Source: a candidate division WOR-3 bacterium
Lineage (GTDB): Bacteria; Hydrothermota; Tepidihabitantia; SM23-42; JAOAFX01
DNA length: 64,000 nucleotides
Assembly (NCBI GenBank): GCA_965649105.1
Contig: CBFGJP010000002.1
Coordinates: 637-64,636 of the forward strand
Reading direction: 5' to 3'
The notes below the pieces were generated by a model. The model saw only the letters and a list, made by a program, of their open reading frames with translations. It did no database searches and was not told the origin of the DNA. Shown here one piece after another: positions 3,905 to 35,325 of the stretch. The number at the start of each line of letters is the position of its first letter. Position 1 is the stretch's first letter. Made by a program: the position numbers and the translations under genes.

Positions 3905-3947
3905 AATGTGATTATAATAATTTAAGCTATAAAGTCAATAACACTTC

Positions 3948-3975
3948 TTGACTCATTATGTATTTTAATTATAAT
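3948..3975 (+). promoter_or_regulatory. sigma70-type promoter TTGACT-16-TATAAT; predicted start coincides with ATG 3982 (leaderless)
   Basis: ttgact at 3948-3953, 16-nt spacer, tataat at 3970-3975, ATG 7 nt downstream. Confidence 0.6.
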
Positions 3976-3981
3976 AGAAAT

Positions 3982-6777
3982 ATGACCCCCTTGGTGTTGA
4001 CTTTATTTTTCTTCAATCAATATTTTGGGCAAAACAAAATTCAATATCGTGATTTTAATTTCAAAATTCTTTCCAGCGAGCATTTTGAAATTTATTTTTA
4101 CGCGGGTGGAGAAACTATTGCGCATTTTGCCCAGGATGTACTTGAAGATGGCTATGAACAATTGAGTAAAGATTTTGGCATCGAAGTTGAATTTCGTATT
4201 CCGGTGATACTTTATAATGCACCAAATCATTTTTCGCAGACAAATGTTACTCTCGAACTGATTGAAGAATCGGTTGGTGGTTTTACGGAAATTTTGAAAA
4301 ATCGTATGGTGATACCATTTAATGGTGATTACGAAGAATTTCGCCATGTGCTCATTCACGAGTTAACGCATGTATTTGAGTTTGTAATTTTCTTTCCCTC
4401 AAAACTTGAGGCGCTATTGACGGGAGATCTTTTTTACTCAATACCGCTGTGGGTAATGGAAGGATGTGCGGAGTTTTTTTCTCAGGGCTGGAATCTTGAG
4501 GCAGATATTTATATGCGGGATTTAATTATGCATAATCAGGTAATTCCATTATCAGATCTTGGCAATTATGGTGGTTATATAATATATAAGGAAGGGCAGG
4601 CCTTTTATAATTATGTAAATATCAGATATGGCAGAGAGAAAATCAGTGAATTTATTCACCTTCTTAAATCAAAGAAAAATTTGGAAAATGCATTTGTCAG
4701 CGCGTTTGGTGTCAGTGTTGATGAATTCAATAAACGCTGGATTAAATTTTATCAATTACAATACTGGCCCAAAGTTAAGCTTTCGGAAAATTTCGATAAT
4801 TTTGCGCGTGTTGTCTATGACCATAAAAAAACCCGATCTTTCTATAATACGTCTTCCGCGATATCTCCCAATGGTGATAAAATTGCATTTATCAGTGATC
4901 GTCAGGGAAATGTTGATTTGATTATAATATCAAGTATCGACGGTAGAATTCTGAAAAAACTCATTCGTGCTGAATATTCTTCAGGCTATGAAGGTCTACA
5001 TCTTTATCAAGGTGGCATTAGCTGGTCGCCAGACGAGAAATATATCTGTTTTGCTGCTAAGGCGCGGGGTGATGATGTCCTTTATATAGTAAATGCTCGA
5101 AGCGGAAGAGTGTATAAAAAATTTAAATTAAAACTTAACGGCATATACTCTCCAAAATTTTCACCTGATGGGAAAAAGATTATATTCAGTGGACTTAAGG
5201 ATTCCTATCTTGATATTTATCAAATTGAAATAGCCAGTGGCAGCGTTGAGAGAATAACAAACGATATCTATGCAGATAAATTTCCTGTTATATTTTCAGA
5301 AGACCGAATTGCCTTTGTCTCAGACCGGCCGGATTCCAATGGAAATTATTATTATGGTAGTTATGGTGTTTTCTTGAAAGAAGGAAACGACATTAAAAGA
5401 CTCACGCCACGCGCAACCTACATAGCCTGGCCTTTGTTTAATGCGGACACAGGTATCTACTTCGTTGCTGATTATGACTCAGCCTATAATCTTTATTATT
5501 TTTCATTCAATGCGAATAAAATAGTTAGAAGAACAGATATCCTTACTGGGATTTATTATCCTTCCATTTCCAGAGATTTTCAAAAAATTGCATTCGGGTA
5601 TTATAATGACTATGGCTATGATATTTGTGTTGTGAAAGAGCCACTCAAAAGTATGGTTGAATGTGATTCAATCGAAGTTGAAATTGCTGAAAATTCATAT
5701 AGCGCAGGTGAGCTTAATAACGAAAAAATAAGAAAGTATCGCCTGAAATTTACGCTTGATTATATTGTAGCAAGTGCTTCATATTATACACCACTTGGTT
5801 TCTCCGGAATGACCCAGATTGCCTTAAGCGATATCCTTGGTGACCATCTCATTCAATGCAGCACTGACTTTTATGGGAGTTTATCTTCTTCAGACATATT
5901 TTTTGTTTACTGGTATTTGAAGAAAAGAATGGACTTCGGCTTTGCCTTTTATCAGTATTTGAACTATTTTGCTTCAGGGAATGACCTTGTAATATGGCGT
6001 TATCTTGGTTTAGGTGGTATGGTCCAACATCCATTTACAAAATTTTTCCGAGCCGAACTCGGCCTTTATAAATACAAAATTTATGAAACAAAATGGGTCG
6101 ATTTCTTTGACGATTTTTATTCTGATATATATACAGAAACTTCTTATAATTTCACATATCCTGAACTTTCTTTCATTTTTGATAATGCAAAATGGGGTGA
6201 TACCGGTCCCATAAATGGTGTGCGCACACGCATAACAGGATATACTACTATATTTAGTGATTTTGATATAAAGGTTGGTGTTTTCGACTACCGGCGATAT
6301 TTTAGACTTTCGCCCAGGGCGAGTTTTGCCACCAGATTGGTTTTGGCAGGAAATTTTGGTAAAGAAGATGAACTCTGGTCAATAGGTGGTCCCGGTTCAA
6401 TCCGGGGGTTTGATTATTATACATTTACTGGTACAGATTTAGGATTCTTTAATTTTGAATATCGTTTCCCATTTATAGACCGACTCAGACTGGCATTTCC
6501 AATACCCATGGAAATCAAAAATATCAGGGGAGTTCTGTTTGCTGACTTTGCGGGAATATATTCTGATTCATTTGATGTCTTTGAATCAGCAGAGGGGATT
6601 TTACCAGTTCGCCTCAAAGATGTAAAGATGGGGCTTGGATTTGGATTGCGCTTTAATCTACTTTTCGCAATATTCAAATTAGATTTTGCCCGTTCAAATG
6701 ATCTGCAAAACTGGGTTGATGAAAAGGGCGAACCCTCAAAATGGAAATTTTATCTGACAATCGGCCCCGAATGGTAA
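3982..6777 (+). CDS. Omp85/BamA-family outer-membrane beta-barrel protein with N-terminal HExxH metallopeptidase-like module and TolB-like PD40 beta-propeller repeats
   Basis: HELTHVFEF motif near residue 135. Repeated PD40-like units (SPNGDKIAFISDRQGNVDL; SWSPDEKYICFAA; SPKFSPDGKKIIFSG; EDRIAFVSDRPDSNG). C-terminal approx. 300 aa with alternating amphipathic strands, the Omp85 loop-6 motif IGGPGSIRGF, and a terminal aromatic residue (…TIGPEW). Start moved to ATG 3982 because the track start 3958 lies inside the promoter. Confidence 0.7.
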   Translation: MTPLVLTLFFFNQYFGQNKIQYRDFNFKILSSEHFEIYFYAGGETIAHFAQDVLEDGYEQLSKDFGIEVEFRIPVILYNAPNHFSQTNVTLELIEESVGGFTEILKNRMVIPFNGDYEEFRHVLIHELTHVFEFVIFFPSKLEALLTGDLFYSIPLWVMEGCAEFFSQGWNLEADIYMRDLIMHNQVIPLSDLGNYGGYIIYKEGQAFYNYVNIRYGREKISEFIHLLKSKKNLENAFVSAFGVSVDEFNKRWIKFYQLQYWPKVKLSENFDNFARVVYDHKKTRSFYNTSSAISPNGDKIAFISDRQGNVDLIIISSIDGRILKKLIRAEYSSGYEGLHLYQGGISWSPDEKYICFAAKARGDDVLYIVNARSGRVYKKFKLKLNGIYSPKFSPDGKKIIFSGLKDSYLDIYQIEIASGSVERITNDIYADKFPVIFSEDRIAFVSDRPDSNGNYYYGSYGVFLKEGNDIKRLTPRATYIAWPLFNADTGIYFVADYDSAYNLYYFSFNANKIVRRTDILTGIYYPSISRDFQKIAFGYYNDYGYDICVVKEPLKSMVECDSIEVEIAENSYSAGELNNEKIRKYRLKFTLDYIVASASYYTPLGFSGMTQIALSDILGDHLIQCSTDFYGSLSSSDIFFVYWYLKKRMDFGFAFYQYLNYFASGNDLVIWRYLGLGGMVQHPFTKFFRAELGLYKYKIYETKWVDFFDDFYSDIYTETSYNFTYPELSFIFDNAKWGDTGPINGVRTRITGYTTIFSDFDIKVGVFDYRRYFRLSPRASFATRLVLAGNFGKEDELWSIGGPGSIRGFDYYTFTGTDLGFFNFEYRFPFIDRLRLAFPIPMEIKNIRGVLFADFAGIYSDSFDVFESAEGILPVRLKDVKMGLGFGLRFNLLFAIFKLDFARSNDLQNWVDEKGEPSKWKFYLTIGPEW

Positions 6778-7979
6778 TGTGGTTATTGTTATTTATTTAT
6801 TTAGGATGTGGTAATGTCAAAGAGCAGAAATGCGTTGTATACTTCTGGCATGTTATGGGTGGGCCGATCGGCAGAAAACTTGATGAGATGGTGCAGGAAT
6901 TTAACAGGTTGCACCCTGAAGGTGAGATACGATCAGCCCAGATGGGTTCTTATGATGCCCTGGCGCAAAAACTTATGGGTGCCATTGCTTCAAATTCACC
7001 ACCAACAATCGCTCAAATGTATGAATCATGGACCGACCAGTTTTTTAAAGCAGGATTTTTGGAACCCCTGCAGAATTTTATTGAAAAAGATTCTTCTTTT
7101 GACCTTTTAGATTTTTTCCCGGTATTCATTGAAGATAATACCTTCGACTCAATAATTGTTACGCTCCCTTTTAACAAAAGTCTTCCGGTATTTTATTACA
7201 ATGCAGCGGTATTGGATTCAGTGGGGATAGCAGCATTTCCTGAAAATTGGGTTGATTTCAGAATTATGTGCGAAAAATTGAGAAAATTAAAAATTTGGCC
7301 TACATCCTGGCCCATAGATGTCTGGTATTTTGGTACAATGGTTTATCAAGAAGGTGGTGAGTTGTTCAATGAAAATACGAAAAGACCAATGTTTCATAGT
7401 GAACCAGGGGTCAGGGTGTTAGAATATCTGGTGGGTTTAGTGAAAGATAGTTTATTCTATCTCAATCCGGGGTTTCAACGTCAGGACGAGTTCTTGAGCG
7501 GAAATGTGGCAACAATACCCGCCTCAATTGTCTCTTGGGTATTCTTAAAGGGCCGACCAAAATTTAAAATGGGGGTAGCACCATTCCCCGGTGGGAAAAA
7601 TAAAAAAGTTGTGATCGCCGGCACTAATATTGGAATGTTTAAAAAAGCCAGTCCTGAACAAAAAAACCTTGCCTGGGAATTTATTCGATGGTTTCTGGAA
7701 CCCGAGCAACAGATAAAATGGACAAAAGCAAGTTATTACCTACCTACCCGACAGAGTGTAATCAAATTTCCTGAATTTCAAGAATTTCTGAAAGAAAATC
7801 CCAACTATGACAGGATTGTTGCCCAGCTTGCTCTTGCAACCACCGAGCCTAAGTCAAAAGAATGGTTTACCGGCAGGATATATTTAAACGAAGCACTTGA
7901 AGAAGCCATGCGTCTTGAAAGAACGCCGGAACAGGCACTTGATAATGCCGCAAAAAGATTATTTGTTGACCTGGAGTGA
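6771..7979 (+). CDS. ABC transporter substrate-binding lipoprotein (family 1 extracellular solute-binding, sugar-type)
   Basis: Lipobox LLFIYLGC|G. Similarity pattern of MalE/UgpB-like SBPs across the length. No permease or ATPase genes adjacent. Confidence 0.65.
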   Translation: MVMWLLLFIYLGCGNVKEQKCVVYFWHVMGGPIGRKLDEMVQEFNRLHPEGEIRSAQMGSYDALAQKLMGAIASNSPPTIAQMYESWTDQFFKAGFLEPLQNFIEKDSSFDLLDFFPVFIEDNTFDSIIVTLPFNKSLPVFYYNAAVLDSVGIAAFPENWVDFRIMCEKLRKLKIWPTSWPIDVWYFGTMVYQEGGELFNENTKRPMFHSEPGVRVLEYLVGLVKDSLFYLNPGFQRQDEFLSGNVATIPASIVSWVFLKGRPKFKMGVAPFPGGKNKKVVIAGTNIGMFKKASPEQKNLAWEFIRWFLEPEQQIKWTKASYYLPTRQSVIKFPEFQEFLKENPNYDRIVAQLALATTEPKSKEWFTGRIYLNEALEEAMRLERTPEQALDNAAKRLFVDLE

Positions 7980-8070: not shown

Positions 8071-8949
8071 TTGGTAAACCGAATCCCGTACGGATGGTTA
8101 TTCGCTATGTTATTGATTGCTATTCCTTTGGTTAGTTATCTTTTAAGCCCTAAAATTTATTACCTACAAGGTGGACAGTTTATCATTGAAAAAGTTATGG
8201 GCAAAAAGATCAAAATACCGATTAGTGAGATTGAAGGCATTTTTGCGGTTGAAGACTTTTATAAATTGAAACCCGTGAGGTCAATCGGTAATGGTGGATT
8301 ATTTGGTTATTATGGAATATATACTACAAAAGATTATGGGAATATTAACTGTCAATTAACAAGGTTGAAAAGGATTCTGATTATTAAATCAGAAAAAGGA
8401 TATTACGCAATATCACCAGCGAAGACGGAAAGGCTATTTGAATTGTTCAAATCAATGAATGCTATAACACTGACTAAAGAAATTTCGGAAGCCGAGCCAA
8501 TACAAAAGAAGGCGAGTCCGTTGATATTATTAATTCCTGATACAATCGTCGCTCTTCCCTTGATTATGATAATTTTACTTTATCCACAACTACCCGCTAA
8601 TATTGCAATCCATTTTGATGCAAGTGGAACCCCTGACGGATGGGGTCCCAAAATTTCTTTTCTTTATTTTGGATTCATTCCCCAGGTAATAATTATGATA
8701 ATATGCGCAATTTCATTCTTTGCTATGAGAAATAAATTCCGTAATGCAATGCCGGTTTATCTCTTGATAATTATGCTTTCATTGATCCAGCTCATAGTAG
8801 CTTATTTTTCATTTGATATATACTGGTTCAATGTGTACCAATCGCATTTGGCTCCTATGGGTTATCTATTTATAATTTTTACCGGAGTATTTTTGGCCTT
8901 GTTAATTATCTACTATCGGAATTTAACAAAAAAAGAAGACCACAGATAA
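8071..8949 (+). CDS. membrane protein with bacterial PH-like N-terminal domain and DUF1648 (SdpI/YhfL-like) C-terminal domain
   Basis: N-terminal TM segment, then a soluble region, then PANIAIHFDASGTPDGWGPK (DUF1648 signature) followed by several TM helices. Confidence 0.5.
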   Translation: MVNRIPYGWLFAMLLIAIPLVSYLLSPKIYYLQGGQFIIEKVMGKKIKIPISEIEGIFAVEDFYKLKPVRSIGNGGLFGYYGIYTTKDYGNINCQLTRLKRILIIKSEKGYYAISPAKTERLFELFKSMNAITLTKEISEAEPIQKKASPLILLIPDTIVALPLIMIILLYPQLPANIAIHFDASGTPDGWGPKISFLYFGFIPQVIIMIICAISFFAMRNKFRNAMPVYLLIIMLSLIQLIVAYFSFDIYWFNVYQSHLAPMGYLFIIFTGVFLALLIIYYRNLTKKEDHR

Positions 8950-8978
8950 TATTTTGTTAATTCCCAGAGCCATTATTA

Positions 8979-9605
8979 CTACTTGAAAATTTCTTTTCCC
9001 TTACCAACGATTTTATTCAATTGTTCTCTGAAATAGTCAGTATTTTCTACGATATGTTTAGGAATTTGCTGACAATAATACTCCCAGGAGCGTTTTATTT
9101 CAGCACCAAGGAGTTGCACCAGGGTTCCATCGCGCAGACCCTGTTCAACCTTTTCTTGATTATAGAGAACAAGATCAGAAGCAAGTGCCTTGGCAAGTCT
9201 TCTTGCCCTCTCGTGCCACTTTTTATCTTCTTCGCTCATTTCCGGCTGGAGCGGTGTTTTAGGTTTTGAGACAATTTCTGCCTGAGGCGCAACTGGACTT
9301 TCAACTTGGGGAGGTTCGGGAATTTCTGGTTTTGGTGGAGGTTGCACAGTAGGCTGTGGGATATTTTCCTGTGCGGGTTTTTGCATCTCGGATGATACAG
9401 TCGGTTCTACCTTATATGGTGGTTCAACTTTGGGGGGTGGGGGTGGGGTTTCAACACGCGGAACCTCAGGTATTGACGGTGGGCTCTCTTTTTTTATTAA
9501 AATCACATTCTGACACTTTGGGCATTTAACCTTTACACCACTTGCAGGAATTTTATTTTCATCGACATTATATTTTGAATGGCAATTTGTGCATTCAACA
9601 ATCAT
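8979..9605 (-). CDS. zinc-ribbon (MJ0042-type CxxC…CxxC) protein with proline-rich linker and conserved C-terminal domain
   Basis: N-terminus CTNCHSKYNVDENKIPASGVKVKCPKCQN. About 90 aa of P/E/V-rich low-complexity sequence. Structured helical C-terminus. Confidence 0.5.
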   Translation of the reverse strand: MIVECTNCHSKYNVDENKIPASGVKVKCPKCQNVILIKKESPPSIPEVPRVETPPPPPKVEPPYKVEPTVSSEMQKPAQENIPQPTVQPPPKPEIPEPPQVESPVAPQAEIVSKPKTPLQPEMSEEDKKWHERARRLAKALASDLVLYNQEKVEQGLRDGTLVQLLGAEIKRSWEYYCQQIPKHIVENTDYFREQLNKIVGKGKEIFK

Positions 9606-10188
9606 TTTTTAACTCCTTCAAAATCTTCAGGCACTGCCTTTTGAGTTGCCAAAGCGTGCCATTATTTTTTATAACATATTTTGCCGCCCGTTCCATCTCA
9701 GATTCTTTTTTCTGGCTCTGCAGGATACGGTAAAATATCTTTTCCGGAATCCCTCTTTTTTGTGCCCTTGTTTTTTTGGTTTCAAGTGGTGCCTTAACGA
9801 GAATGGGATAATCAACTTTTTTTAATAATTCGGGCCAATCAAAAAGCAATGCAGCATCAATTACCACCATACCACTGGGAATACTATCAATCTTTTTGTT
9901 AATTTCCTCAAGCAATCTGGGATGAGAAAGACGATTAAGAATCCTCAGATATTTTTGATTAGAAAAGACAATGTCCCGCAGTTTTTTTCTGTCAACCTTT
10001 TCACCTGTAAATATCTCATCACCAAAATGGATTTTTAATCTTTCGGCAATTGCTGGCAATATGCTTTTCCCGATGCGATCAGCAGAAATATATTTCATTC
10101 CCCAGGATTGAAACATCTTGGCAACAGTTGTTTTTCCTGAACCAATGTTCCCGCCCACCCCGATCACCACCTTATTTTTTTTCATCAA
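9595..10188 (-). CDS. coaE: dephospho-CoA kinase
   Basis: P-loop GVGGNIGSGKTT at the N-terminus; length 197 aa; CoaE family pattern (DAD…, C-terminal lid). Confidence 0.85.
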   Translation of the reverse strand: MMKKNKVVIGVGGNIGSGKTTVAKMFQSWGMKYISADRIGKSILPAIAERLKIHFGDEIFTGEKVDRKKLRDIVFSNQKYLRILNRLSHPRLLEEINKKIDSIPSGMVVIDAALLFDWPELLKKVDYPILVKAPLETKKTRAQKRGIPEKIFYRILQSQKKESEMERAAKYVIKNNGTLWQLKRQCLKILKELKNDC

Positions 10189-22402: not shown

Positions 22403-23107
22403 TCAATGTGCGGGATGAAGATTATTCTTTAAAATTTCTTTTGCCCTTATTCCAATCGGTGAATTTGGGTATTTTACAACCAGTTCTTCAAGCATCTTTA
22501 ACCCCTCCTGTTTTTTTCCCATTTTTATGTAGATTTCGGCGACAAAAATCTTTGCCCGATGGATACGATTTGCTGGAAATTCTTTTTTCAACTCTTCAAG
22601 GGCAGATAATGCCTTCTCAAATTCATTTCTCTTGTCATAAACAAGCGAGAGGTAGAAGAGCGCAAAATCCCCAAGGTTTGTCTTTATGATCTTTTTTAAA
22701 CTATCCTCAGCAGATTTTAGGTCGTTGATTTCGTATCGGTAAATTGATTGTACCAATCTTTTCAAAAGAGCAGTATCCTTACGCGTAGACTCAATTAGAT
22801 GGAGCCTTTCCAGTGCCTCGTTCGCATACTTTGCATTAGAAAACCGCGCCACCGTTTTTAAATATTGTTCGCGCGCGGATAGTATTTCACATTTAAAAAA
22901 TAGATTTTCACCCATCAGATAATTTATCTCTGCCTCCGCCTCTAATCCGAAGCTATTTTCATATTTTTTTAGATAAAAGTTGGCACTATCAAATAAGCCC
23001 ATTTTGCGATATGCATCATTCAATGCAATGATATATGAATAATCTGGTTTTATTTCAATCAAATTCTTTAAGGAATCTATCTCCATAAAGAGTAAAATTA
23101 AGATCAT
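22403..23107 (-). CDS. TPR-repeat protein
   Basis: 234 aa of helical TPR-like repeats. ATGA overlap with the upstream giant ORF. Confidence 0.6.
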   Translation of the reverse strand: MILILLFMEIDSLKNLIEIKPDYSYIIALNDAYRKMGLFDSANFYLKKYENSFGLEAEAEINYLMGENLFFKCEILSAREQYLKTVARFSNAKYANEALERLHLIESTRKDTALLKRLVQSIYRYEINDLKSAEDSLKKIIKTNLGDFALFYLSLVYDKRNEFEKALSALEELKKEFPANRIHRAKIFVAEIYIKMGKKQEGLKMLEELVVKYPNSPIGIRAKEILKNNLHPAH

Positions 23108-26100
23108 TCTTGCTCCAGCAATGCCTTAAAATATTCTCTTATATAAGCTTCATATTCTACAGGATGGGGTTGTTTCAAAGCCCTTTGGATTATTTCCATT
23201 AATGCATCATGCCCCAATTCCTGCGGTAAGGAAGCCGGGGAAAGATGTCTTATATCTTCACCCGGCTTACTTTTTCTTTCTTTGGTCCAGTCTTCCTGTC
23301 TTATTGATCTTTCAGCATCAAGTAGCCTTGATATGATTAATTGCTGGCGTTCAATGAGTTTCCTATCTATTTTGTACTGATACAATGCTTCTTCCGTCTC
23401 TTTCATTTCTTCCGCAATATTATCGAGCAGTTCCTGGAATTTCCCCGCCTCAGGATAGCCTTTCAGCGATTCAAGTGCCTGTCTAAGTTCACGCTGTTTT
23501 CCGGCAAGGCGTTGAATCTGTGCCATTTGTTCGGAAGTTAATCCACTTGATAGAATGGGGAAGAGGTTAAATATTGATTGCCCAATACCCATCTGGTTTT
23601 GTGCCAGCGAAGATAAATTTTTCAAAAATTCATCAATACCAGTTGATGAACCGCTACCTTCCACAGCCTTTTTCAAACTCTGGAGCATTGATAAAGATGC
23701 AAGATTCAATTGTTTCATTGCCTCCCGAACATGGAATTTACCAGTATTTGCCGGATTTAAAGATGCTAATTCCATTTCCTTCAAAGCCTTGCTCAATCTT
23801 TTGCCAATCTCCGGTCCGACATAAATGCTTTTTACCTGCTGGGCATAAAGACTTTCTGCTACTTCATTTGTTGCCTTTGCAATCAACGATTGCCTATCCG
23901 GGTCAATCTTTTCTAATGTCAACAATTCTTCTTCAAGTTTAGACAACTCAATCAATTGATTCAGTGTTTCAAGGAGATTCCTTCGTAAATTTGCTGCCCT
24001 GCCTTTTGTCAATTCTTCATACAACCTCTGTAAATCTGCGGATAGTTTATTCAGTTCCTTTTTTAGTTCTTCGGGATTGAGGTTTTCTCCGTGAGACATT
24101 GAATGCGCCTGTTTTGAAGCCTGTTTTAATTGTTCTGAGATTTCTGGTTCAAGATTTTCGGATTCAGAAAGTTTTTCAATTTCTTTTGCAAGGCTATCAA
24201 TGGTTCGGTAAAGACTATCAAGGGATTCTTTCAATCCTTCCATTCCTTTGATTTCGCCAAGTCTTTTTAAATCTTCTGCCTGCTCCGACAATTCCTTTGC
24301 CTTATCGGCAAGTTCTTTTAATCTTTCTTCCTGTTGATACCTTTTTAGTAGTTCAAGGGTTCTCTCCAATGCGTTAGCAAGTTCTTCCTGGGCTTCCTTC
24401 AATTGTTCCATTGCCTTTTTTAGTTCTTCAGGATTTTTATGCAATGCCTGCTGCAAGTTCTCAAGTGCCCTTTTTAACTCCTCGGGTGCAATTTCTTTAA
24501 GTATTTTCGTAATCTCCTGGAGTCTTTCAATCGATTTCTGATCGAGAAAGATTCCGCTCTTTAATTTATCAATCGTATTCTTCAATTCATTTTGCCATTC
24601 TTCAATCTTTTTTAGGACCTCCTCTTCTTTATTTATGACTTCTTTAAGTTTTTCATTATCAAGCCAGGATAATTCTCGCTCCCGTTTTAATTTCTCTTCA
24701 AGCCTTTTTACTTCCTTCATTCCTTCCTGATGAGTACTTTTGAGATCTTTAATTTCAGATACAACCATTTCTTCCCTGCCCTTTACTTCTTCATATATTT
24801 GTTCCATTGTGGGGAAGTAAATGAAATATGTCTTGCTCTTAGTACGCTGACCACCCTGGTCCTGGACGACAACAAAATAAGAAACTCTATCTCCCGGCAA
24901 CATCCTCAGTTCGCTTAAATCCCACACATAAAAGATTGTATCATCAGTGCTGCCTTTTTTAAACTTCAAACTTATATCTTCCGCATTCTTGAATTGATAC
25001 ATTAGATTAACCTTACTCAAGCCATAATCATCACTGCATCTTATCCCCAAGGTGATTTTCATATTCGGGGGCATATTGATGTTGTATCCGGGAGAAAAAA
25101 TCTCTACAAGAGGCGCGAGGTCTGGTATTGCATAGATTGATATTTCTTCATTATGCGACGTTTCTCCGATGATTATTAAATTGGCTGTACCGCTTGAAGC
25201 AATTTTAAATCTTCCCGAAAATGATTCTCCATTACAGATAAGTTCTGTTGTATCGTTAAATAATAATCTTGCCTGGTTAATAACCTGCGATGCCTTTCCT
25301 TTTATCTCTACTTCTGTTCCCACAGGAACAATCAACTGTCTATCGTTCTTTATTTCATCCCACAACTTTGTATATTTTGGATAATGAATATAAAAGGTTA
25401 ACTCTTTTAGATATATTGGTTCAATAACACCTATGCTATAATCACCGGTCTTCAAATTGAAGAATTCAAAATGATAATTGAATGGTTCAATTATTTCAAT
25501 CTTTTTGTTTGCTTTACCATCAATAACCGGTAGTTCAAATCTTTTTATCCCGGTTTTTGTTTTGTAAACAAACACTACTTTTTCTGGAATATATGGTCCA
25601 AAAAGATTTAATGTAAATTCTACATTATCATTACGGCTAAATCTCCCTGATTTTGGTATAACAGTATATTCAATCCTGTGATTCAACGCAAACCAGAATC
25701 TACCCGGTAAGAATCCTGGAAAAGAAAGGACAAAGAGTAATGAAATTAAAAAAAACCCCAATGACCAGTTTAGAAACTTCTTGTCCGTAAATTTTTTGAC
25801 TTCAATATTAGCAAATTTTTCATCTGTAGATTCAACAAACGCATTTATCAGTTCTCTTGAGTAACCTTCACGATTATTTTCAGGGATGTGGAATATCTCA
25901 ATGGTGCTCACAATCTCGCCATTTGCGCCAACTTTCCGGTCTAACTCTTTTGCCCACTCGGCAAATTTTTTCCTACGATAAAAAATTATTGGAATTAAAC
26001 CGATAAATCCGTATAACGGAGATTTCAATAAAAATAACGAGACGGTTGTAGAAATCAGAATTGCACCTAAGGTGAATAAAAGCAAAGCAAAAAAATTTAT

Positions 26101-26151
26101 TAATCCTTGTTTATGTGCATACTTAATTACTTTTCTATCAATTATTGTCAT
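23104..26151 (-). CDS. giant membrane-anchored protein: N-terminal double TM and second TM pair, beta-rich middle region, approx. 320-aa coiled-coil, helical C-terminal domain
   Basis: 1015 aa. TM segments at approx. 20-60 and 125-150. Residues approx. 440-760 are strongly heptad-like E/K/L-rich. Translationally coupled to DUF4159 (upstream) and TPR (downstream) genes. Confidence 0.6.
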   Translation of the reverse strand: MTIIDRKVIKYAHKQGLINFFALLLFTLGAILISTTVSLFLLKSPLYGFIGLIPIIFYRRKKFAEWAKELDRKVGANGEIVSTIEIFHIPENNREGYSRELINAFVESTDEKFANIEVKKFTDKKFLNWSLGFFLISLLFVLSFPGFLPGRFWFALNHRIEYTVIPKSGRFSRNDNVEFTLNLFGPYIPEKVVFVYKTKTGIKRFELPVIDGKANKKIEIIEPFNYHFEFFNLKTGDYSIGVIEPIYLKELTFYIHYPKYTKLWDEIKNDRQLIVPVGTEVEIKGKASQVINQARLLFNDTTELICNGESFSGRFKIASSGTANLIIIGETSHNEEISIYAIPDLAPLVEIFSPGYNINMPPNMKITLGIRCSDDYGLSKVNLMYQFKNAEDISLKFKKGSTDDTIFYVWDLSELRMLPGDRVSYFVVVQDQGGQRTKSKTYFIYFPTMEQIYEEVKGREEMVVSEIKDLKSTHQEGMKEVKRLEEKLKRERELSWLDNEKLKEVINKEEEVLKKIEEWQNELKNTIDKLKSGIFLDQKSIERLQEITKILKEIAPEELKRALENLQQALHKNPEELKKAMEQLKEAQEELANALERTLELLKRYQQEERLKELADKAKELSEQAEDLKRLGEIKGMEGLKESLDSLYRTIDSLAKEIEKLSESENLEPEISEQLKQASKQAHSMSHGENLNPEELKKELNKLSADLQRLYEELTKGRAANLRRNLLETLNQLIELSKLEEELLTLEKIDPDRQSLIAKATNEVAESLYAQQVKSIYVGPEIGKRLSKALKEMELASLNPANTGKFHVREAMKQLNLASLSMLQSLKKAVEGSGSSTGIDEFLKNLSSLAQNQMGIGQSIFNLFPILSSGLTSEQMAQIQRLAGKQRELRQALESLKGYPEAGKFQELLDNIAEEMKETEEALYQYKIDRKLIERQQLIISRLLDAERSIRQEDWTKERKSKPGEDIRHLSPASLPQELGHDALMEIIQRALKQPHPVEYEAYIREYFKALLEQE

Positions 26152-26783
26152 CTCAGCGTTAATACATAAACAACAATATTTATTCCCATTCTCAATGCCT
26201 GTTCTCTTTTTTCCGGTGGGTCATTATGCACATCCGGGTCTTCCCAACCGTCACCAAGATCAGTCTCATAGGAATAGAATAATACAAGACGATTATTATA
26301 AAATATACCGAATCCCTGGGCAGGTTTATTATCATGCTCATGGATTTTAGGAAGTCCTTCAGGAAAATCATAAAAAGAATGGTATATAGGATGGTCAAAG
26401 GGTAGTGGAATCAATGGTGAATCAGGAAACACCCGTGCTATTTCTTTTCTAAAAGAAGAATCCATCCCATAACAGTCATCTGCGTGGAGAAAGCCACCAT
26501 TGATTAGATAATTCCTTAAAATTTTTACCTCTTCATCACTAAATTTAACATTACCATGGCCAGTCATATAAAGATAAGGGTATTTAAATATATCAGGGTT
26601 TGTGAGTTCAACCACCGCCTCTTTTGGTGCGGCGCGAATGTTGGTTCTTTCATTAATTGCCTTCAATAGATTGGGTAGGGAACTCGGGTCACAATACCAA
26701 TCTCCGCCGCCTCCATATTTCAATCGCGCAATGGTAAAATCATACTGGTTGAACAACAAAAGTTCAAGAAGCAAAAAGACCAT
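26148..26783 (-). CDS. DUF4159-family protein
   Basis: 211 aa; hydrophobic N-terminus; conserved motifs YGGGGDWYCDP, YPYLYMTGHG, GGFLHADDCYG as remembered for DUF4159. Confidence 0.55.
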   Translation of the reverse strand: MVFLLLELLLFNQYDFTIARLKYGGGGDWYCDPSSLPNLLKAINERTNIRAAPKEAVVELTNPDIFKYPYLYMTGHGNVKFSDEEVKILRNYLINGGFLHADDCYGMDSSFRKEIARVFPDSPLIPLPFDHPIYHSFYDFPEGLPKIHEHDNKPAQGFGIFYNNRLVLFYSYETDLGDGWEDPDVHNDPPEKREQALRMGINIVVYVLTLR

Positions 26784-32591: not shown

Positions 32592-34019
32592 ATGGAAAAG
32601 ATATTAAAGAATATAATTGACACATTGAAATTAAAAAAAGCTACATACGGTGATGTGCGCCTTGTTCAAGAAGAGACCGAGACTATAATGATAAAGAACG
32701 GAATCGTCGAGGCACTCACCCATAGTTTTGATATGGGATTTGGTGTAAGGGTACTAAAAAATAACGCCTGGGGATTTGCTTCTTCAAACTTGGTTAATAA
32801 TAGTGAGGGGAACCGCGTGACAAAGAATGCACTATTGATTGCCGGAGCGTCAGCAAAGATTAAAGGGAATCCGGTAATCTTGAGCCCCATTGGGCCACAA
32901 AATGGTTCATACCTTACTGCAGTCAAGGTCGATCCATTCAAACTCCCGTTGAGCAAAAAGATTGACCTATTACTTAAATGTGATAAAGTGATATCTGGAG
33001 ATCAAAGAATAAAGACAAGATTTTCTTTTATATCATTCCGCCGGGTGAAGGTCTATTTCTATTCCACCGAGGGGTCTAAGATAATTCAGGAATTCACCTA
33101 TGTGGGTGGCGGAGTAAAGGCATTTGCCATGGACCAGGGCGAATTACAAATTCGTTCTTATGATGATTATGGACAGGCAGGTTATGAATTTATAGAAGGA
33201 TTGGATTTAATTAAAAATGCTGAACGGGTAAAGGAAGAAGCCATTATGCTTTTGAGTGCAAAACCCTGTCCTTCTATGAAAACAACGGTGATTCTTGATT
33301 CCAATCAGATGGTCCTGCAGGTTCATGAATCCTGTGGACATCCAACTGAACTTGATCGCGTTTTAGGAACCGAAGCTTCCTATGCAGGCACATCTTTCAT
33401 GACACCAGAAAAACTGAACAATCTAAGATACGGTTCTGATATTGTGAATATTGTAGCAGATGCTACAATCCCTGGTGGTCTTGGTACATTTGGTTGGGAT
33501 GATGAGGGTATACCAGCGCAGAAAGTATACTTAATAAAAAATGGTTTATTCGTAGGTTATCAAAGTTCTCGAGAAACAGCACCGGTGGTAAACGCCAAAT
33601 CAAGCGGCAATATGAGGGCGGATGGTTGGAACCGGATACCACTGATAAGAATGACGAATATAAATCTCTTACCGGGTGAATGGAAACTTGAAGATATGAT
33701 TGCCGATACAAAAGAAGGTATCTTTATGACAACGAATAAATCATGGTCGATTGATGATAAAAGATTGAATTTCCAATTTGGTTGTGAACTCGCACGCAGA
33801 ATTGAAAATGGAAAATTGACAGAGGTTTATAAGAATCCAACTTATGCAGATATAACACCACAGTTCTGGAATAAATGTGATGCCATAGGGAATAAGGATT
33901 ATTGGCATCTCTACGGGGTACCTAATTGTGGAAAGGGTGAACCTGGACAGACGATGTTCGTTGGGCACGCAACGGCACCTGCCCGATTTAGAGACGTCCA
34001 GGTTGGGATTGCAAAATGA
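32592..34019 (+). CDS. tldD: TldD-family metalloprotease (cytoplasmic)
   Basis: 475 aa; TldD/PmbA fold pattern with HESCGHPTELD (HExxxH) motif. Confidence 0.8.
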   Translation: MEKILKNIIDTLKLKKATYGDVRLVQEETETIMIKNGIVEALTHSFDMGFGVRVLKNNAWGFASSNLVNNSEGNRVTKNALLIAGASAKIKGNPVILSPIGPQNGSYLTAVKVDPFKLPLSKKIDLLLKCDKVISGDQRIKTRFSFISFRRVKVYFYSTEGSKIIQEFTYVGGGVKAFAMDQGELQIRSYDDYGQAGYEFIEGLDLIKNAERVKEEAIMLLSAKPCPSMKTTVILDSNQMVLQVHESCGHPTELDRVLGTEASYAGTSFMTPEKLNNLRYGSDIVNIVADATIPGGLGTFGWDDEGIPAQKVYLIKNGLFVGYQSSRETAPVVNAKSSGNMRADGWNRIPLIRMTNINLLPGEWKLEDMIADTKEGIFMTTNKSWSIDDKRLNFQFGCELARRIENGKLTEVYKNPTYADITPQFWNKCDAIGNKDYWHLYGVPNCGKGEPGQTMFVGHATAPARFRDVQVGIAK

Positions 34020-34041: not shown

Positions 34042-35325
34042 ATGTCTAAACAGTTAAATTCCAAATTAGGATTTTTCTTGTTGACTATGCTAACACATTG
34101 TGCTTATTTCAACACCTTTTATAATGCCCAAAATTATTTTAATCAGGGAATGAAATTGGTTAAAGACGACACCCTTAAATACGATAATGAATATTTTGAC
34201 AAGACTATTGAAAAGTCTGCATTGGTGATTGCTAAATATCCAGAGTCAAGATATGTTGACGATGCCTTATTTATGATGGGTGTAGCATATTATTTTAAAG
34301 GTGACTATACCCGGGCGATTGATAAACTTGAATTTCTAACTACAAACTTCCCGGCTTCAAAACTATATGATGATGCAATGTACTATAGTGGGCTTGCATA
34401 CTACAAGAATGATAAATTGAGTAAAGCAATAATTGCTTTGAAAGAGGCAACAAAAACCAAAAGTTTTAGCAAAAGAGCAAATATAGTGCTCTGCTATGCA
34501 TACTTTCGTGATCGGAATTATCGCGATTTAATGAATACCGCCCATTCACTTCTCCAGGAAAAACTAAGACGTCGTGAAAGATTGGTTATATTGAATATAC
34601 TCGGTGAAGCAGCTTATTTAATGAATGAATATGAATCCGCGCTTCAGACTTTTAACGAAGTAAAAATTTTACAGGATTCTCCTCAAGAAAAGAAAAATAC
34701 AAAATTGAAGATTGCTAATATTTACCTAAAAATGGGTAAATATGATGAATGCAAAAATTTCCTTCAAAATGAATCGGACCCTGAATTCAGGGTGTTGCTT
34801 GCTGATTTATATGTCCAAACCGATAGTATTGAAACCGCAAAGGAGTTATATAAAGAAATAAAAGAGACCCAGGCGCCTGAATTTGCAGCTAAGGCACTAT
34901 ACGAACTTGCTCTGGTTGCGGAGAAAGAAGATAGCCTTGAACTGGCAATTGCATATTACGATTCACTCATTCCTAAGGCAAGTGGCGAGATTCTGAACAA
35001 GGCAAAAGCGCGGTCTGAAATCTTAAAAAAAATAGTAGAATTAACAAAAAAAACTGATGAACTTGATAAAGCACAATTTGCATTGGGTGAATTGTATTTT
35101 GTTGATGTGAAGGATATCCCAAGGGCAATGAAATATTATGAGAATGTATATGTAAATTATCCAAAAAGTAGTTTTTCACCCAAAGCATTGTATGCAAATT
35201 TCTGGATAAGCAAAATGATTTTAAAACAGGACAGTCTTGCACAGAAACTGGTAGATGAATTGATTAAAAGATATCCGGATACTGAATATGCTCAGAGCGC
35301 AATTAATTTAATGAATAAGGAATGA
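34042..35325 (+). CDS. TPR-repeat lipoprotein
   Basis: Lipobox LTMLTHC|A; multiple TPR repeats (YxxAxxxxxxxxY pattern). Confidence 0.65.
   Translation: MSKQLNSKLGFFLLTMLTHCAYFNTFYNAQNYFNQGMKLVKDDTLKYDNEYFDKTIEKSALVIAKYPESRYVDDALFMMGVAYYFKGDYTRAIDKLEFLTTNFPASKLYDDAMYYSGLAYYKNDKLSKAIIALKEATKTKSFSKRANIVLCYAYFRDRNYRDLMNTAHSLLQEKLRRRERLVILNILGEAAYLMNEYESALQTFNEVKILQDSPQEKKNTKLKIANIYLKMGKYDECKNFLQNESDPEFRVLLADLYVQTDSIETAKELYKEIKETQAPEFAAKALYELALVAEKEDSLELAIAYYDSLIPKASGEILNKAKARSEILKKIVELTKKTDELDKAQFALGELYFVDVKDIPRAMKYYENVYVNYPKSSFSPKALYANFWISKMILKQDSLAQKLVDELIKRYPDTEYAQSAINLMNKE

Follow-up and report, generated by a model that had tools for sequence, protein, structure and literature searches.

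The stretch analysed here, 64,000 nucleotides (nt) of contig CBFGJP010000002.1 from a candidate division WOR-3 bacterium (hereafter the window), carries near its beginning a single open reading frame (ORF) in which a metallopeptidase domain, a TolB-like beta-propeller and an Omp85 beta-barrel are fused. Its neighbours in the window are a Na/Ca-exchanger gene and a gene for a binding-protein-type lipoprotein. The features of the locus are the following, with residues numbered from the ATG at 3982:

3948..3975, +: sigma-70-type promoter (TTGACT 3948-3953, 16-nt spacer, TATAAT 3970-3975; 11 of 12 consensus positions)
3982..6777, +: coding sequence of the peptidase-propeller-Omp85 protein, 931 amino acids (aa) plus stop
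3982..4029, +: short hydrophobic signal peptide, MTPLVLTLFFFNQYFG, residues 1-16 (N-terminal alignment; predicted local distance difference test, pLDDT, <50 at residues 1-17)
4030..4806, +: gluzincin (clan MA) metallopeptidase domain, residues 17-275
4273-4290, +: VGGFTE, the end of an invariant upstream motif of the peptidase domain
4357-4371, +: HELTH, residues 126-130, in the peptidase domain
4450-4476, +: WVMEGCAEF, third-ligand motif of the peptidase domain
4807..5637, +: PD40/TolB-like beta-propeller, six blades, residues 276-552
5638..5748, +: variable linker, residues 553-589 (37 residues)
5749..6774, +: Omp85 barrel, 16 strands, residues 590-931
6400-6411, +: IRGF of loop 6, residues 807-810, between strands 11 and 12
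6538-6555, +: FADFAG of strand 13, residues 853-858
6760-6774, +: IGPEW, the C-terminus
6771..7979, +: lipoprotein of the SBP_bac_1/8 type (ORF 6741..7979; probable start ATG 6771; lipobox LFIYLG followed by C)

The ORF itself spans 3958..6777 on the + strand and gives 939 aa counted from its first ATG. The in-frame ATG at 3982 is the likely translation start, because the resulting 931 aa agree with the lengths of homologues (about 920-936 aa) and with the geometry of the promoter; the closest database homologues have 920-936 aa and are 92-57% identical to the window protein. An earlier reading made from the sequence alone had let the gene begin at 3948, a position that is the first base of the TTGACT hexamer and lies outside the ORF.

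Three modules in one chain

That sequence-only reading had described a chimera of an HExxH module, a PD40 propeller and an Omp85/BamA barrel, and all three modules turned out to be real by profile matches, an AlphaFold2 model and fold comparison. The motifs that it quoted are also in place: HELTH at residues 126-130, IGGPGSIRGF at residues 801-810 (nt 6382-6411) and a C-terminus ending in IGPEW. The AlphaFold2 model was built on a family alignment of 32 sequences (pLDDT 84; predicted template modelling score, pTM, 0.82), contains both the propeller and the 16-strand barrel, and packs the domains against each other with confidence. In an alignment of 32 sequences, down to 39% identity to the window protein, the proportion of invariant positions was highest in the peptidase (13.9%), followed by the barrel (9.9%) and the propeller (7.2%), and was 0% in the linker (0 of 37 positions). 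The invariant residues include H126, E127, H130, E160, E164, R808 and D855. Profile hidden Markov models (HMMs) of each module, run against the six-frame translation of the window, matched this gene alone, thus revealing no paralogue in it. We also considered an assembly chimera, and rejected it: the fusion is found as a single ORF in more than 79 independent loci.

The signal peptide of the window protein has no basic n-region, and was assigned from the alignment and from model confidence. Throughout the WOR-3 clade these signal peptides are very short (12-16 residues), often lack a basic residue and precede a conserved (Y/F)FGQNK(I/V)QY; distant relatives have, at the same position, classical Sec signal peptides, which are 20-45 residues long and have a basic n-region. 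The short WOR-3 form may be linked to the leaderless starts described below.

The N-terminal domain, modelled as a mixed alpha/beta domain at residues 28-275, matches Pfam Peptidase_MA_2 over residues 64-264 (33.0 bits, cut-off 32.4), and its best fold matches are collagenases and M1 aminopeptidases. Searches by sequence against solved structures, both with the single sequence and with a 16-sequence profile, returned only noise (MxiA and filovirus nucleoproteins, E ≥ 0.2); it is thus the Pfam match and the fold comparison that support a peptidase. E160 and E164 sit in W-x-x-EG-x-x-E, an M1-like third-ligand helix, so that the domain combines HExxH with a downstream Glu as third zinc ligand inside a thermolysin-like fold, which is what characterizes gluzincins. 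A coincidental HExxH was rejected given this fold. From its sequence signature the active site appears intact, and zinc binding and proteolysis are predicted. That the peptidase is the most constrained module speaks against a degenerate pseudo-peptidase. It resembles M9 collagenases and M1 aminopeptidases in the gluzincin fold and in having, some 30 residues after HExxH, a Glu within an EGxAE helix; however, identity to them is only 12-15%, and the M1/M9 accessory domains are absent.

We also observed that a second stretch of the peptidase, QTN..L.L.EE..GGF(T/S)E..KNR.V.PF (residues 89-113, window 4246-4320), is invariant down to 39% identity. Its GGF(T/S)E core lies 23 residues upstream of HExxH. 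Despite this invariance, nowhere in the peptidase is the model less confident than here (pLDDT <50 at residues 90-98). Possibly the motif forms a mobile segment that binds substrate or acts as a lid. GGF(T/S)E presumably falls roughly where M1 aminopeptidases carry their GxMEN exopeptidase motif, a correspondence that we take as a lead only.

The propeller matches Pfam PD40 (55.6 bits over 3 stretches) and comprises about 24 strands, that is, six blades, in the model; the profile of the 32 family members matched solved TolB at 4e-18. Canonical TolB was nevertheless rejected as an identity: it is the propeller alone that matches, the TolB equivalog model NCBIfam TIGR02800 gives a propeller match of 75 bits with a cut-off of 343, the N-terminal TolA-binding alpha/beta domain of TolB is lacking, and the gene lies outside a tol-pal operon. 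There is no POTRA domain between propeller and barrel, the model showing one short helix and one short strand in the linker.

The model gives the barrel 16 long strands (residues 590-927). IRGF lies in a 27-residue loop joining strands 780-791 and 819-837; R808 belongs to (I/V/L)RG(F/Y) and D855 to FxDxG, and across the 32 sequences the C-terminus always reads G-x-(D/E)-(F/W). Turns on one side of the barrel have 2-8 residues, and loops 6, 7 and 8 on the opposite side have 27, 20 and 15. In the model the topology is thus that of a canonical Omp85 barrel, with the N-terminal modules attached at the periplasmic end of strand 1. The barrel fold is nearest to TamA and BamA, and the 32-member profile matched solved BamA barrels, that of Fusobacterium (9ccg) over its full extent at 6e-12 and those of E. 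coli at 2.5e-7. Full-length homologues pass Pfam Omp85 (PF01103, cut-off 24) with 35.7 bits (P0075, profile positions 35-325) and 51.5 bits (P0109). The assignment of a barrel of the BamA/TamA/FhaC type is well supported by its 16 strands, the loop-6 (V/I)RG(F/Y), the strand-13 FxDxG and the terminal aromatic residue, all of which it shares with BamA and TamA. It differs from these in having no POTRA, shorter extracellular loops, and an enzyme and a propeller at the N-terminus; a canonical BamA or TamA was rejected for the missing POTRA domains and for scores far below the BamA/TamA equivalog cut-offs of NCBIfam.

A WD40-like member of the Omp85 superfamily

Outer-membrane biogenesis centres on Omp85 proteins, and the members studied to date work with POTRA domains. 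In the classification of Heinz and Lithgow (2014, Front Microbiol 5:370, PMC4104836) the Omp85/TpsB superfamily has ten subfamilies; one of these, "WD40-Omp85 / WD40-like", appears in their domain table as PF01103 with PF07676 repeats. For about 100 members of it, their Table S3 lists Phyre matches to BamA/TamA (4K3B, 4C00) and TolB (2W8B), a "best aminopeptidase hit" column (1Z5H, 4KXD, 4AR1, 3QNF and others) and no POTRA match. We recovered these fold families independently for the window protein, which has an Omp85 barrel preceded by a PD40 (PF07676) TolB-like propeller without POTRA, and at its N-terminus an aminopeptidase/collagenase-like fold as in 1Z5H, 4KXD and 4AR1. The window protein thus fits the WD40-like subfamily; the assignment was made by architecture and fold families. 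We are highly confident that it is a WD40-like Omp85 protein, in which a propeller and a gluzincin replace the POTRA domains of the barrel.

The listed members come from cultured Bacteroidetes, Chlorobi, Ignavibacteria, Rhodothermus/Salinibacter, Caldithrix, Myxococcales, Geobacter, Vibrionaceae and others, whereas the window protein is from WOR-3. Full-length relatives with 38-39% identity to it occur in Cloacimonadota (loci L067 and L075), a phylum represented in the published list (B0VIY2). The novelty of the chimera that the sequence-only reading implied is not supported, since the same three fold assignments were catalogued in 2014 (PMC4104836): the family is known and its function undescribed. 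The fusion is a WOR-3 addition to a large subfamily already on record, not a new kind of system. In its main text the 2014 study treats the propeller, which it reads as part of a BamA-BamB-like fusion, but not the peptidase.

When one genome per species was scanned by pattern, 369 stretches encoding a relative came up, the best 80 of which belong to WOR-3, Stahlbacteria, TA06, Latescibacterota, Cloacimonadota and Hydrothermota. Exhaustive HMMER scanning of 1.84 billion cluster representatives (50%-identity clusters) returned 1,207 of them at E ≤ 1e-30. The best 150 representatives are mostly 870-1,190 aa long, a few being shorter (483 aa at the least), and in nearly all of them the match spans peptidase and propeller. 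The names found for distant clusters, all from Poribacteria and Hydrogenedentota, are limited to "hypothetical protein" and "BamA/TamA family outer membrane protein", and no NCBIfam model names the family.

A comparable design is found in PlpD and the patatin-like Omp85 proteins, which also have an N-terminal enzyme domain fused to an Omp85 barrel. PlpD, however, carries a patatin lipase and one POTRA and forms homodimers, while the window protein carries a gluzincin and a propeller and no POTRA. Nor is it a type Vd protein, which consists of passenger, POTRA and barrel: the POTRA is missing and the passenger is another enzyme.

A specialist is unlikely to be surprised by the architecture, but what Omp85 enzymes without POTRA do is a real question. 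Subfamilies with enzymes in place of POTRA are widespread and functionally blank, and the field names them as structural and functional targets; the WD40-like subfamily was described in 2024 as not well characterised and an intriguing target (Hanson et al. 2024, PMC11116518). To this the locus adds evidence that the peptidase of the subfamily is catalytically intact, as judged by its signature, and is the most conserved module; it also adds a confident full-length model, and a recurrent downstream lipoprotein gene as a concrete candidate partner or client. The cultured members listed in 2014 (PMC4104836) offer a better experimental entry than an uncultured WOR-3 genome.

Proposed function and alternatives

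The explanation that we favour for the protein as a whole is that of a periplasm-facing, outer-membrane-anchored, propeller-gated metallopeptidase, a reading that we judge evenly balanced between right and wrong. Its barrel, of the 16-strand BamA/TamA type, would be anchored in the outer membrane. Strand 1 of Omp85 barrels starts on the periplasmic side, and the propeller and peptidase are thus most likely held against the inner face of that membrane. The propeller would limit access of the peptidase to unfolded chains, a restriction that is established for propeller-containing peptidases, and the peptidase, working at the barrel or close by, would cleave unfolded or partly folded envelope polypeptides, e.g. 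stalled outer-membrane proteins or lipoproteins. The gene would be transcribed from its near-consensus promoter as a leaderless mRNA, and in this WOR-3 clade translational coupling would supply the binding-protein-type lipoprotein as a possible partner or client. This specific mechanism, propeller-gated cleavage of envelope polypeptides at the barrel, is more tentative and we place it somewhat short of an even chance; the clients and the proteolysis are predicted, and any role of the barrel beyond anchoring is putative.

The arrangement would be a single-chain analogue of that of BAM and BepA. BepA docks on BAM for outer-membrane protein quality control (PMC13478230, PMC8423444). As a zinc metallopeptidase that deals with stalled outer-membrane proteins at an Omp85 machine, it offers the nearest functional parallel, an analogy and not a homology. 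BepA is a separate soluble protein of M48 and TPR parts, whereas here a gluzincin of the Peptidase_MA_2 type and a PD40 propeller are fused to the barrel itself. As to location, a periplasmic position of the soluble modules beneath the barrel is suggested by the modelled topology and by PlpD, whose N-terminal enzyme domain was shown experimentally to be periplasmic (PMC11116518). The sequence-only reading had put forward a periplasmic or surface module for substrate capture and processing on a translocon, a functional idea that stands as a hypothesis; of its two locations, surface exposure is the less likely.

Several points weigh against this reading. Of the domains expected from the sequence-only reading, Peptidase_MA_2 and PD40 were recovered, but PF01103 was matched only by homologues: the window protein has no match to it at E ≤ 1, and is also below threshold for NCBIfam Omp85_fam (26 bits, cut-off 200). 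The periplasmic placement rests on topology rules and on PlpD as a single precedent. The retained Omp85 motifs also stabilise the barrel fold, and are no proof of insertase or translocase activity. A literature search found no experimental study on any WD40-like Omp85 member. Finally, no conserved functional operon emerged: the genes around the fusion vary from clade to clade, are for the most part housekeeping genes, and give no signal of envelope quality control. Judged by eye, those upstream resemble tmk, fpg, an S41 protease and an asparaginase in the distant clade, and Metallophos, patatin and GGDEF genes in another.

The alternative that survives best, itself unlikely, is that the barrel is a passive anchor. 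It would merely tether the enzyme, a propeller-gated gluzincin would trim imported oligopeptides in the periplasm for nutrition, and the adjacent binding protein would be functionally unrelated. Tricorn and the DPP-IV-type enzymes are propeller-containing peptidases that trim oligopeptides, and several traits of the family agree with this comparison: the fold matches of the N-terminal domain to collagenases and M1 aminopeptidases, weak propeller matches to DPPIV_N and Dpp5 together with precomputed Tricorn_N and Tricorn_2nd matches on homologues, and, as a lead only, the GGF(T/S)E near the GxMEN position. The binding-protein neighbour is, moreover, missing from most of the family. However, a lipid anchor or a simple barrel would suffice as a tether, whereas the loop-6 RG(F/Y), FxDxG and terminal G-x-x-aromatic are kept down to 39% identity and the fusion is kept in more than 1,000 clusters at 50% identity. 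The pTM of 0.82 also suggests that the modules are packed in a fixed way on the barrel, rather than loosely tethered.

A more ambitious possibility is a self-contained processing translocon, in which the Omp85 lateral gate or lumen would be coupled to the propeller-gated zinc peptidase, which would cleave, mature or export clients including the co-translated lipoprotein. We consider this a long shot. If true, it would represent a new functional class of Omp85 machine, with proteolysis and membrane handling in one chain.

It is improbable that the barrel instead exports its own peptidase-propeller passenger, in the manner of type V systems, to degrade extracellular proteins. Such surface display was raised for the related "Metallo" subfamily of Omp85 by analogy with PlpD (PMC4104836), the N-terminal domain resembles secreted collagenases, and WOR-3 relatives encode many secreted proteases that are substrates of the type IX secretion system (T9SS). 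But the PlpD precedent has been overturned, its N-terminal domain being periplasmic (PMC11116518), and surface proteases in these lineages use T9SS C-terminal domains, of which the window protein has none. In addition, the protein lacks both a POTRA and a long linker, and the 37 linker residues and a folded passenger of about 560 residues make self-translocation through a 16-strand barrel implausible.

Very doubtful, too, is a two-partner system in which the fusion protein would assemble, export, process or dock the downstream lipoprotein, like TpsB with TpsA or BamA with its lipoproteins. The sequence-only reading had noted an orphan ATP-binding cassette (ABC) substrate-binding lipoprotein directly after the fusion gene, and both parts of this description agree with our results. 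The downstream protein matches SBP_bac_8 (E 1e-36) and SBP_bac_1 (E 1e-30), is weakly UgpB/MalE-like (the sugar/glycerol-phosphate binding type), and from ATG 6771 begins with MVMWLLLFIYLG followed by C, a lipoprotein signal; it is locally an orphan, with no ABC permease adjacent or among 18 further window ORFs scanned. Its ATG overlaps the stop codon of the fusion gene (ATGGTAA), the same 4-nt overlap of start and terminal codons is conserved in close relatives and occurs in at least six relatives in all, and the two genes are probably co-transcribed. UgpB-type binding proteins are capable of periplasmic chaperone action (PMC8144458), which would suit such a partner.

Across loci, the co-directional binding-protein gene lies directly downstream in 24 (the window included), where the fusion proteins are 56-100% identical, and in none at ≤52%; this linkage is conserved within one WOR-3 clade only. 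At 35-52% identity, 25 loci have a different, likewise co-directional lipoprotein of about 410 aa directly downstream, often overlapping (e.g. L045 8827-10056, L072 8714-9964 and L062 8743-10011, plus 22 further loci). It belongs to no Pfam family, showing only a weak MucB/RseB N-terminal match and a precomputed SecDF_P1_head match. Homology between the two lipoprotein families was rejected (hhalign probability 0.7%), and a lipoprotein at this position therefore arose twice. The recurrence is suggestive, but adjacency inside each clade could be inherited gene order. Besides, the sister group (57-65% identity) has no lipoprotein downstream, and a non-lipoprotein of about 570 aa instead, and in L034, the closest species-level relative (90% identity), a mobile-element-like ORF separates both genes. 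That ORF (329 aa, 8825-9814) resembles, by eye, REP-associated/IS200-like transposases at its N-terminus, and the stop/start overlap is broken there.

Least probable among these alternatives is a non-proteolytic assembly factor, a BamA-BamB-like fusion with the propeller as docking platform and the "peptidase" as binding module, which is the conservative hypothesis of Heinz and Lithgow (PMC4104836) and accords with a barrel nearest TamA/BamA, but leaves the invariance of all zinc ligands and the catalytic Glu, and the peptidase's rank as most conserved module, unexpected for a degenerate binding domain.

Promoters and further genes of the window

The consensus promoter and leaderless mRNA proposed by the sequence-only reading are borne out, with the promoter near-consensus and the mRNA probably leaderless: the -10 hexamer ends 6 nt before ATG 3982, which implies a leaderless transcript, and the arrangement recurs in the window and is conserved in orthologous loci. 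A composite pattern of a -35 hexamer (≥5/6), 16-18 nt, a -10 hexamer (≥5/6), 5-7 nt and ATG occurs 9 times in the window, where 0.8 ± 1.0 occurrences were expected from Markov-simulated windows. All nine ATGs open ORFs, of 211-931 aa, and the spacers are 16 or 17 nt with gaps of 5 or 6 nt from -10 hexamer to ATG. These leaderless-type starts are:

3904, -
3982, +
12420, -
20622, -
26783, -
39761, +
51972, -
55791, +
59312, +

On this evidence, this WOR-3 genome appears to make frequent use of leaderless mRNAs. Most orthologous loci (90-57% identity) preserve both hexamers and the interval between them and the start codon, while the spacer sequence has diverged; among more distant loci, two have leaders of 13-14 nt and one has a Shine-Dalgarno-like leader. 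The first start in the list is that of the Na/Ca-exchanger gene (ATG 3904, -), which is divergent from the fusion gene and shows the mirror promoter arrangement. Window positions 3911-3975 thus hold two back-to-back promoters, each with 11/12 consensus positions, whose -35 hexamers are 9 nt apart.

Beyond the binding-protein gene follows a membrane protein with bPH_5 and DUF1648 (8071-8949, +), here as well as in the 10 closest loci (74-100%), so that the conserved block of this sub-clade consists of Omp85 fusion, binding protein and bPH/DUF1648 protein, in this order. At 23104-26151 (-), a 1,015-aa ORF with no Pfam match at E ≤ 1e-5 lies in an apparent operon, flanked on one side by a DUF4159 gene (26148-26783) and on the other by a TPR gene (22403-23107); the first gene of this operon has a leaderless-type promoter. 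Finally, 27 kb from the fusion gene and following a PmbA/TldD metallopeptidase gene (32592-34019), the window encodes a 427-aa TPR protein (34042-35325, +) that matches YfiO/BamD (PF13525, 40 bits, cut-off 25) and is a candidate for the genome's BamD-like lipoprotein.

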